Position numbers and translations under genes: made by a program. From the NCBI RefSeq assembly GCF_003991155.1, contig NZ_CP031293.1: DNA of 64,000 bases; one strand, given 5' to 3'. This DNA comes from Escherichia coli. Lineage in GTDB: Bacteria > Pseudomonadota > Gammaproteobacteria > Enterobacterales > Enterobacteriaceae. A model generated the notes under the pieces. That model was not told the origin of the DNA. It did not search any database and was given only the letters and a program-made list of their open reading frames with translations. Of this stretch, positions 61,397 to 62,962 are shown in pieces (within the stretch, counting starts at the first letter, position 1; the number at the start of each line of letters is the position of its first letter).

Positions 61397-61413
61397 TGGA
61401 AAAATTTTCCAAC
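61397..61413. promoter_or_regulatory. Candidate AllR operator in gcl promoter
   Basis: Perfect palindrome TTGGAAAAATTTTCCAA upstream of gcl start. Confidence 0.6.
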
Positions 61414-61428
61414 TTTCAAATTTTGTCA

Positions 61429-61453
61429 AAAAAACCCGCTCCGCAGAGCGGGA
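61429..61453 (-). terminator. Putative allR terminator
   Basis: Stem CCCGCTC / GAGCGGG with 4-nt loop, followed on the minus strand by a run of T, 12 nt past allR stop. Confidence 0.55.
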
Positions 61454-61464
61454 TGCGACAGACA

Positions 61465-62280
61465 CTATGGATGTGCTTTCAGTCCCAACGCCGTGCTGAT
61501 ATCGCGGGCGGTGTCTCTGACCAGCTCACCCTGACTGACAAAACGATCTTCTGTCAGTCTTGATGAAGGCCCGGAGATGGAGATAGCGGCAACAACGCTA
61601 CCGACATCATCGTAAATTGCTGAAGCTATGCAATTCAGACCTACAACATGCTCTTCTTTATCTACGGTATAGCCCAGTTCACGCGCTTGTTCCAGGTCCT
61701 TCAGCAAGGTGGGCATATCCACAAGCGTAGTTGGCGTAAACTGCTGCAAACCGGTTTGCAGAATGATGCTCATCAACTCCTCTTCCGCCAGCGGATAAAG
61801 CAACGCCTTGCCCGCACCGGAAGCATGCAGCGGCAGACGACTGCCCAGTGGCGCACACATCCTGACCATCGATTTACACTCTAACTGACCAATTAATACT
61901 GCTTCATTGCCGTTACGGATCGCGACATTGACCGTTTCGCCGGAAAGTAACATCAGGCGGCGCATAAACGGCCCGGCGACGGAGAGGACATCGCGGTTAT
62001 GGATGTACGCCGCACCGACGTTAAAGACACCTAATCCTATATGCCACCAGCCTAACTGACTGTCCTGATAGACAAAATCCGCTGCCTGTAAAACCTTCAG
62101 CAAGCGAAAGGTCGTGGAGAGCGGCAAATCCAGATTGAGAGAAATATCGCTAACCGATGAACTTCCCCCACTTTTTTCCAGATATTGCAGAATCGCAATT
62201 CCCCGCTCTAACGCCTGTGCGCCCTTCTGTGCCACAGGCTCCGCCTGTCCTGGCCTGCCGCGCCGTCTAACTTCCGTCAT
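61465..62280 (-). CDS. allR: Allantoin regulon repressor AllR (IclR family)
   Basis: 271 aa; conserved position. Confidence 0.92.
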
Positions 62281-62357
62281 ACCTACGTTAACTCCGACCT
62301 ACAAGTGAGCATAAACAATGAACAATTAGTTTATCTTATGCAAGTCGGTTGCAGGCG

Positions 62358-62840
62358 TCACGCAAAACAGAGTTCCTGTTCAGGAATACTTTCAACATCA
62401 CAGTTGTCACTGCCGCCGCGATCGATGGTCAAGAAATCGGTGACGCGCTGCCAGGCGAAAAGTGGATGATGCCAGACGTTACGATGGTAATTCACCCCCT
62501 GTTCGCCGTTGGTAATAAACGCCCGCAGAGTTGACAGGTCTGGTTTGTCGTCGCCTAACGCCACGACCACCACAAACACTTCACCTTTCATCGGGATAAA
62601 GGCCTGAGTGCCCAGCGGATGACGTTCGAGTTCGTGAATGGTCAGCGGCAGATTCGCCGGTTGCGCGCGGTTAATGCTGATAAGCGTACGGTCTTGCTCA
62701 AGAATCTCAACCAGCGCCAAATCGTGGTAACGCTCCACCAGGCCATTGTTAATATGGAAAAAATCCCGTTGCTGCGTTTCGATTACGTCGCCATAAGCAC
62801 TAAAGGCTTCCTGACTTAACGGTAATACCTGAAGTTTCAT
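62358..62840 (-). CDS. allA: Ureidoglycolate lyase AllA
   Basis: 160 aa. Confidence 0.92.
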
Positions 62841-62945
62841 CTTTTTGTCCTTGTAACATAATTCCGTTCAACCACCGCCGACCGGTCAGCTTGGTTTCAA
62901 TAACAGGCAATCTAAAACCTTAAGAGAACAACATCAATACAAAAG

Positions 62946-62962
62946 TTGGAATATTTTTCCAA
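62946..62962. promoter_or_regulatory. Candidate AllR operator in allS-allA intergenic region
   Basis: Palindrome TTGGAATATTTTTCCAA, same half-sites as the gcl site. Confidence 0.55.

Follow-up and report, generated by a model that had tools for sequence, protein, structure and literature searches.

AllR operators at the gcl and allS–allA promoters of Escherichia coli

Two 17 bp palindromes that flank the allR gene of Escherichia coli, referred to here as box 1 and box 2, are the published operators of the repressor AllR and represent already known regulation. Both lie in one 64 kb stretch of DNA that was analysed as a whole (the window), and all coordinates given below are positions in it. 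The reading adopted, in which the boxes serve as operators for AllR, an IclR-family repressor whose gene lies between them, and in which binding would block the adjoining promoters as proposed below, was assigned a probability of about 96%. The initial annotation had described the palindromes as AllR operators at gcl and allS–allA and as ordinary core regulation. The recognition site quoted from the literature, the published motif, the identity to K-12 and the reported targets of AllR all agree with that description.

Materials and methods

The palindromes were located by exact pattern matching. The expected number of occurrences was obtained from 100 shuffled windows, in which dinucleotides were preserved, and from a Poisson estimate based on composition. 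Window positions 13127–64000 are identical to NZ_CP029747.1 and the annotation of this record was applied only to that part, the first 13 kb being excluded.

Orthologous loci were collected by searching species-representative genomes with the AllR protein. The 22 loci obtained come from Escherichia, Citrobacter, Klebsiella, Raoultella, Superficieibacter, Buttiauxella, Izhakiella, Atlantibacter and Providencia, and their AllR proteins are 66–100% identical. A symmetric weight matrix was made from the orthologous AllR sites and scanned over the window. The comparison of box 1 with published data rests on the motif and on the promoter assignment, and the footprint boundaries are those given by secondary quotation in PMC13300388.

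Results and discussion

Sequence and rarity of the palindromes

Box 1 is the gcl operator; its sequence at 61396–61412 is TTGGAAAAATTTTCCAA on the plus strand and TTGGAAAATTTTTCCAA on the gcl strand. Box 2, the allS–allA operator, reads TTGGAATATTTTTCCAA on the plus strand at 62946–62962 and TTGGAAAAATATTCCAA on the allA strand. The strings given for both sites in the initial annotation were exact, as were its coordinates for box 2; those for box 1 (61397–61413) were one base too high. The shared half-sites that it had described were also recovered: the 6 bp arms TTGGAA and TTCCAA are identical in the two boxes, which differ only in the 5 bp A/T centre (AAATT in box 1 versus TATTT in box 2).

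The pattern TTGGAA-N5-TTCCAA occurs twice in the window, at box 1 and box 2 only. The shuffled windows contained a mean of 0.01 matches, and none of the 100 contained two or more. The Poisson estimate gave λ = 0.0039 and P = 7.6 × 10−6 for at least two matches. A search of the 64 kb with TTGGAAWAWTTTTCCAA, allowing up to three mismatches, found no third site.

Locus and gene context

The segment belongs to the E. coli chromosome. Several E. coli chromosomes match positions 61200–63200 with 100% identity, and the segment was found in 5,404 of 5,426 complete E. coli genomes; the allR–gcl and allS–allA regions also occur in two plasmid records of the E. coli collection, which may be real or misassigned replicons. 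On the minus strand the genes follow one another as glxR, hyi, gcl, allR and allA, after which comes allS on the plus strand, and the remaining genes of the all cluster lie at lower window coordinates. The genes gcl (59594–61375, minus strand), allA (62358–62840, minus strand) and allS (63070–63996, plus strand) were placed by RefSeq annotation and the list of open reading frames. This order and annotation fit the gcl and allS–allA promoter context that had been proposed for the palindromes.

Between the two operators sits allR (61465–62280, minus strand), annotated in RefSeq as 'HTH-type transcriptional repressor AllR' (WP_000141275.1). Its product contains the Pfam domains HTH_IclR and IclR_C, and its C-terminal effector domain matches PDB entry 1TF1 (E = 2 × 10−110); the protein is thus a genuine AllR. 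Box 1 is held in the 89 bp allR–gcl spacer, with 20 nt from its downstream end to the gcl ATG. Box 2 is located near the middle of the 229 bp divergent allS–allA region; the allA ATG is 105 nt away from it on one side and the allS ATG 107 nt away on the other.

A lambdoid prophage (1–30531, with intD at 29368–30531) also lies in the window, where it adjoins tRNA-Arg(tct) (30547–30623, minus strand), the DLP12 locus. In NZ_CP029747.1 the genes iss, emrE and ybcK belong to this prophage. That record and the window fail to align base for base over the first 13,126 bases of the window, a divergence that would reflect either an insertion or deletion or a different prophage content.

Comparison with published AllR sites

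The 37 nt 'AllR recognition site' of Rintoul et al. (2002) is quoted in PMC13300388 as AAATCTAGTTTTGGAAAAATATTCCAACTTTTGTATT. This sequence corresponds letter for letter to the minus strand of window 62935–62971, i.e. box 2 with 10–11 nt on each side, so that the comparison with published AllR sites proposed in the initial annotation bears it out for box 2 and its flanks. The published AllR motif, KTTGGAAWAWTWTTCCAAC (PMC8222616), fits both boxes. With the 17 bp core TTGGAAWAWTWTTCCAA both boxes show no mismatch in one orientation, and 18–19 of 19 positions agree when the flanks are included. The allS–allA control region and the gcl promoter are the reported targets of AllR, whose binding is relieved by glyoxylate, as known for K-12 (PMC12535856, PMC11323563); allantoin is a corepressor according to PMC12535856.

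The AllR operators of K-12 (Rintoul et al., 2002, J. Mol. Biol. 324, 599; Walker et al., 2006) are found at the same locus, with the same genes and at the same positions. The whole allS–allA intergenic region is 100% identical in K-12 and in this strain. The gcl box of K-12 agrees with box 1 in half-sites and position, but reads TTGGAAAAATTTTCCAA on the gcl strand, compared with TTGGAAAATTTTTCCAA here. The central base is complementary in the two strains, so that the two sites are reverse complements of each other. In the allR–gcl region, that central base (window 61404) and one flanking base (61394) differ from K-12, and neither touches a half-site. Among the 5,125 E. coli genomes that match the 89 bp spacer, 1,396 are at least 99% identical to the window and the others differ by a few bases.

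Conservation across Enterobacterales

The order allS, allA, allR, gcl is kept in all 22 loci as far as the retrieved DNA extends. A box with 0–1 half-site mismatch was found at the gcl position in all 21 loci that reach it, and likewise in the allS–allA region (21 of the 21 loci that extend that far). In the alignments, the identity of the half-site columns is 0.996 for box 1, compared with 0.687 for the other allR–gcl intergenic columns, and 0.991 for box 2, compared with 0.598 for the other allS–allA intergenic columns. The five central columns of the boxes have an identity of 0.82–0.91. In each of the two intergenic regions the most conserved 17-column block is the AllR box.

The gap between the box and the gcl ATG is 18–21 nt in most species (range 12–27 nt). 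That between the box and the allA ATG is 101–106 nt in 19 of 21 loci, with 92 nt in the two exceptions, and the gap to the allS ATG ranges from 77 to 206 nt. One of the records, CACSKA010000001.1 (locus L010), is titled Chryseobacterium sp. 18061 and carries an Enterobacteriaceae allS–allA–allR–gcl locus, the gene spacing and AllR boxes of which match those of Citrobacter sp. 18056 (locus L022); the assembly is probably mislabelled or contaminated.

The second most conserved block of the allS–allA region, with a column identity of 0.86, is AAAATACTGATAAATCA on the allS strand at about 63003–63019 (plus strand). It could contain the true allS −10 element or a site for the nitrogen-limitation control of allS that is mentioned in PMC12535856.

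Alternative explanations

The sites might mainly be targets of the paralogue IclR, the repressor of the glyoxylate shunt, or cross-talk sites, and not AllR sites. AllR and IclR are close paralogues with a nearly identical glyoxylate pocket, and the IclR operator found at aceBAK and iclR, TGGAAATNATTTCCA, shares with the boxes the outer TGGAA/TTCCA arms, a 15–17 bp span and a regulator released by glyoxylate. It differs by two mismatches from box 1 and by three from box 2, and also in regulator, regulon and genomic position. These mismatches fall at the inner positions that discriminate the IclR motif from the AllR motif, so that identity to the IclR operator was rejected, and at three mismatches the IclR pattern is not distinctive, being no commoner in the window than in the shuffles. 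The boxes moreover flank allR and accompany it in every genome examined, and the literature assigns binding and regulation at them to AllR. A principal role of IclR is thus very improbable, although sequence by itself would still allow some cross-talk. The KdgR box, RWWGAAACGNCGTTTCAKKA, and other A/T-rich operators of the IclR family have the same inverted-repeat architecture, suited to a dimer with the IclR-type helix-turn-helix; the KdgR box differs from the AllR boxes in half-site sequence and in regulon.

Each palindrome could also pair as a 6–9 bp A/U-rich hairpin and so act as an attenuator or stability element in the gcl, allA or allS leader. The predicted folds are weak, however (−6.1 to −7.1 kcal mol−1, z = −0.5 to −1.7), and not better than those of shuffled sequences; Rfam gave no match for the palindromes. 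The arms are invariant across species, without compensatory changes, and the occurrence of the same 12 bases at two unrelated loci points to protein recognition, which leaves a function as RNA hairpins extremely improbable. Intergenic DNA is A/T-rich here and short palindromes are common in such sequence, so that chance palindromes in promoter DNA, with no specific function, also had to be considered. Two matches were observed, against 0.01 expected (P of about 8 × 10−6), and conservation across genera is about 99% in the half-sites, against 60–69% in the flanks. Chance is excluded by these statistics and this conservation, and its probability is practically nil. The AllR operators are therefore retained as the reading of both boxes, and no observation speaks against it.

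The gcl promoter region

The gcl promoter region is bounded upstream by the intrinsic terminator of allR (and of the sRNA AllZ), a hairpin at 61435–61452 (minus strand) followed by a T-run, which was found by a terminator scan and ranks second in conservation among the blocks of the allR–gcl intergenic region. The end of the T-run overlaps TTGACA at 61424–61429 (minus strand), the putative gcl −35 element as read from the sequence, 11 nt upstream of box 1. A TTG recurs at this place in most orthologues. With a 17 bp spacer, TTGACA puts a weak candidate −10 element (AATTTT, a poor match to the consensus) inside box 1, and the gcl start site would be at the downstream edge of the box. A consensus scan for σ70 found no credible promoter at either box, and its sole match on the gcl side would start inside the coding region. 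A Pgcl-lux reporter carrying a K-12 fragment of ∼78 bp, from the terminator to the ribosome-binding site, was inducible with low basal output (PMC13300388); since this fragment suffices, the gcl promoter must be within that stretch.

In K-12 the Hfq-associated sRNA AllZ (b4831) is annotated across the 3′ end of allR and the terminator, at window ∼61428–61662 (minus strand), and as ending at the terminator T-run. A transcription start listed 284 nt upstream of gcl (Kim, 2012) matches the 5′ end of AllZ. PMC10163214 cites a site for RutR ahead of the gcl operon; the RutR motif TTGACCANNTGGTCAA, with up to three mismatches, gave no match near gcl (window 61376–61600).

The divergent allS–allA promoters

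A putative allA core promoter was placed at 62909–62937 (minus strand), with TTGATG (62937–62932) as −35 element, a 17 bp spacer and TAGATT (62914–62909) as −10 element; it scores below the threshold of the consensus scan. Its −35 hexamer begins 9 nt past the end of box 2, and the arrangement TTGnnn-17-TA(G/A)ATT is kept within a 1 nt shift in most orthologues. On the other side, a putative allS core promoter at 62970–62999 (plus strand) consists of a weak −35 element, TTTAGT (62970–62975), an 18 bp spacer and a −10-like hexamer, TATCAT (62994–62999). This −10-like hexamer (TATCAT, TATTAT, TAAAAT or CATTAT) has a constant offset from the box in most orthologues. An alternative allS −10 element may be present within the conserved block at 63003–63019.

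The two predicted promoters flank box 2 almost symmetrically, and if they are right the centre of the box would be near −52 of both. An operator at that distance lies upstream of the core promoter, an arrangement less typical of simple steric repression.

The table of transcription starts in non-inducing media (Kim, 2012) has no start detected at gcl, allA or allS, which is consistent with repression. The same source places a start 395 nt ahead of allR, within the coding sequence of allA (window ∼62675, minus strand), which suggests a separate, internal promoter for allR.

Search for further AllR sites

Box 1 and box 2 scored 34.9 and 31.6 bits, respectively, with the weight matrix. The best other position in the window reached 4.3 bits, which is below the mean maximum of random 64 kb sequences (7.4 bits). 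A scan of the other all promoters of the window had been proposed in the initial annotation as a check; it was negative, in line with the literature. No AllR-like site was found by the matrix in the intergenic regions allD–fdrA(allF) (48710–49025, best score −1.4 bits), glxR–allW (57658–57826, −3.8 bits), allW–allB (56144–56202, −8.5 bits) or allA–allR (62281–62357, −11.4 bits), all being at or below −1.4 bits.

The genes from allW to glxK are co-transcribed in the gcl operon, and allDCE and allF–K depend on AllS (PMC12535856). For allF, the same source reports no predicted AllR site and no effect of allR. The absence of an AllR box at allD and allF thus matches the control of both genes by AllS in the literature.

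Proposed mechanism

The proposed model combines the position of the boxes, their identity to the published site and their conservation, which were observed, with the binding of AllR and its release by glyoxylate as known from the literature and with a predicted overlap with the −35, −10 and +1 elements. An AllR dimer would place one helix-turn-helix on each TTGGAA half-site. Box 1, which follows a perfect TTGACA by 11 nt and precedes the ATG by 20 nt, would cover the −10 and start-site region of gcl, and RNA polymerase would be blocked at the gcl–hyi–glxR–allW–allB–ybbY–glxK operon. At the divergent genes a single box stands midway between the two, and one bound repressor could shut both the allA and allS promoters since the 37 nt recognition sequence reaches the predicted −35 hexamers on both sides. 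AllR is released by glyoxylate, which AllA produces, and gcl, allA and allS would thereby be derepressed. The AllS then made would activate allDCE and allF–K, which are without an AllR box.

AllR is reportedly a tetramer, as described by Walker in 2006. A tetramer bridging both operators and looping out the 1,550 bp that contain allA and allR is an unlikely extension of the model. The pairing of the boxes is the one observation in its favour, and the distance between them, 1,541 to 1,636 bp depending on the species, shows no helical phasing. If it were true, looping would couple the repression of gcl, allA and allS and would perhaps damp read-through into allR. A weak second box beside box 1, as a further site for a tetramer, was also considered and was rejected: the best candidate (61414–61430), in a stretch that is not conserved, scored −2.0 bits.

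Conclusions

Two authentic operators, both already published, could be recognized from the raw sequence alone. The rest of the all cluster conceals no further AllR site, and the finding matters little beyond annotation. The comparison across species, from Escherichia to Providencia, is an independent confirmation, drawn from sequence only, of the core of the AllR regulon (the gcl operon, allA and allS), in which the 6 bp arms of the operator are fixed and variation is tolerated at the centre of the palindrome.
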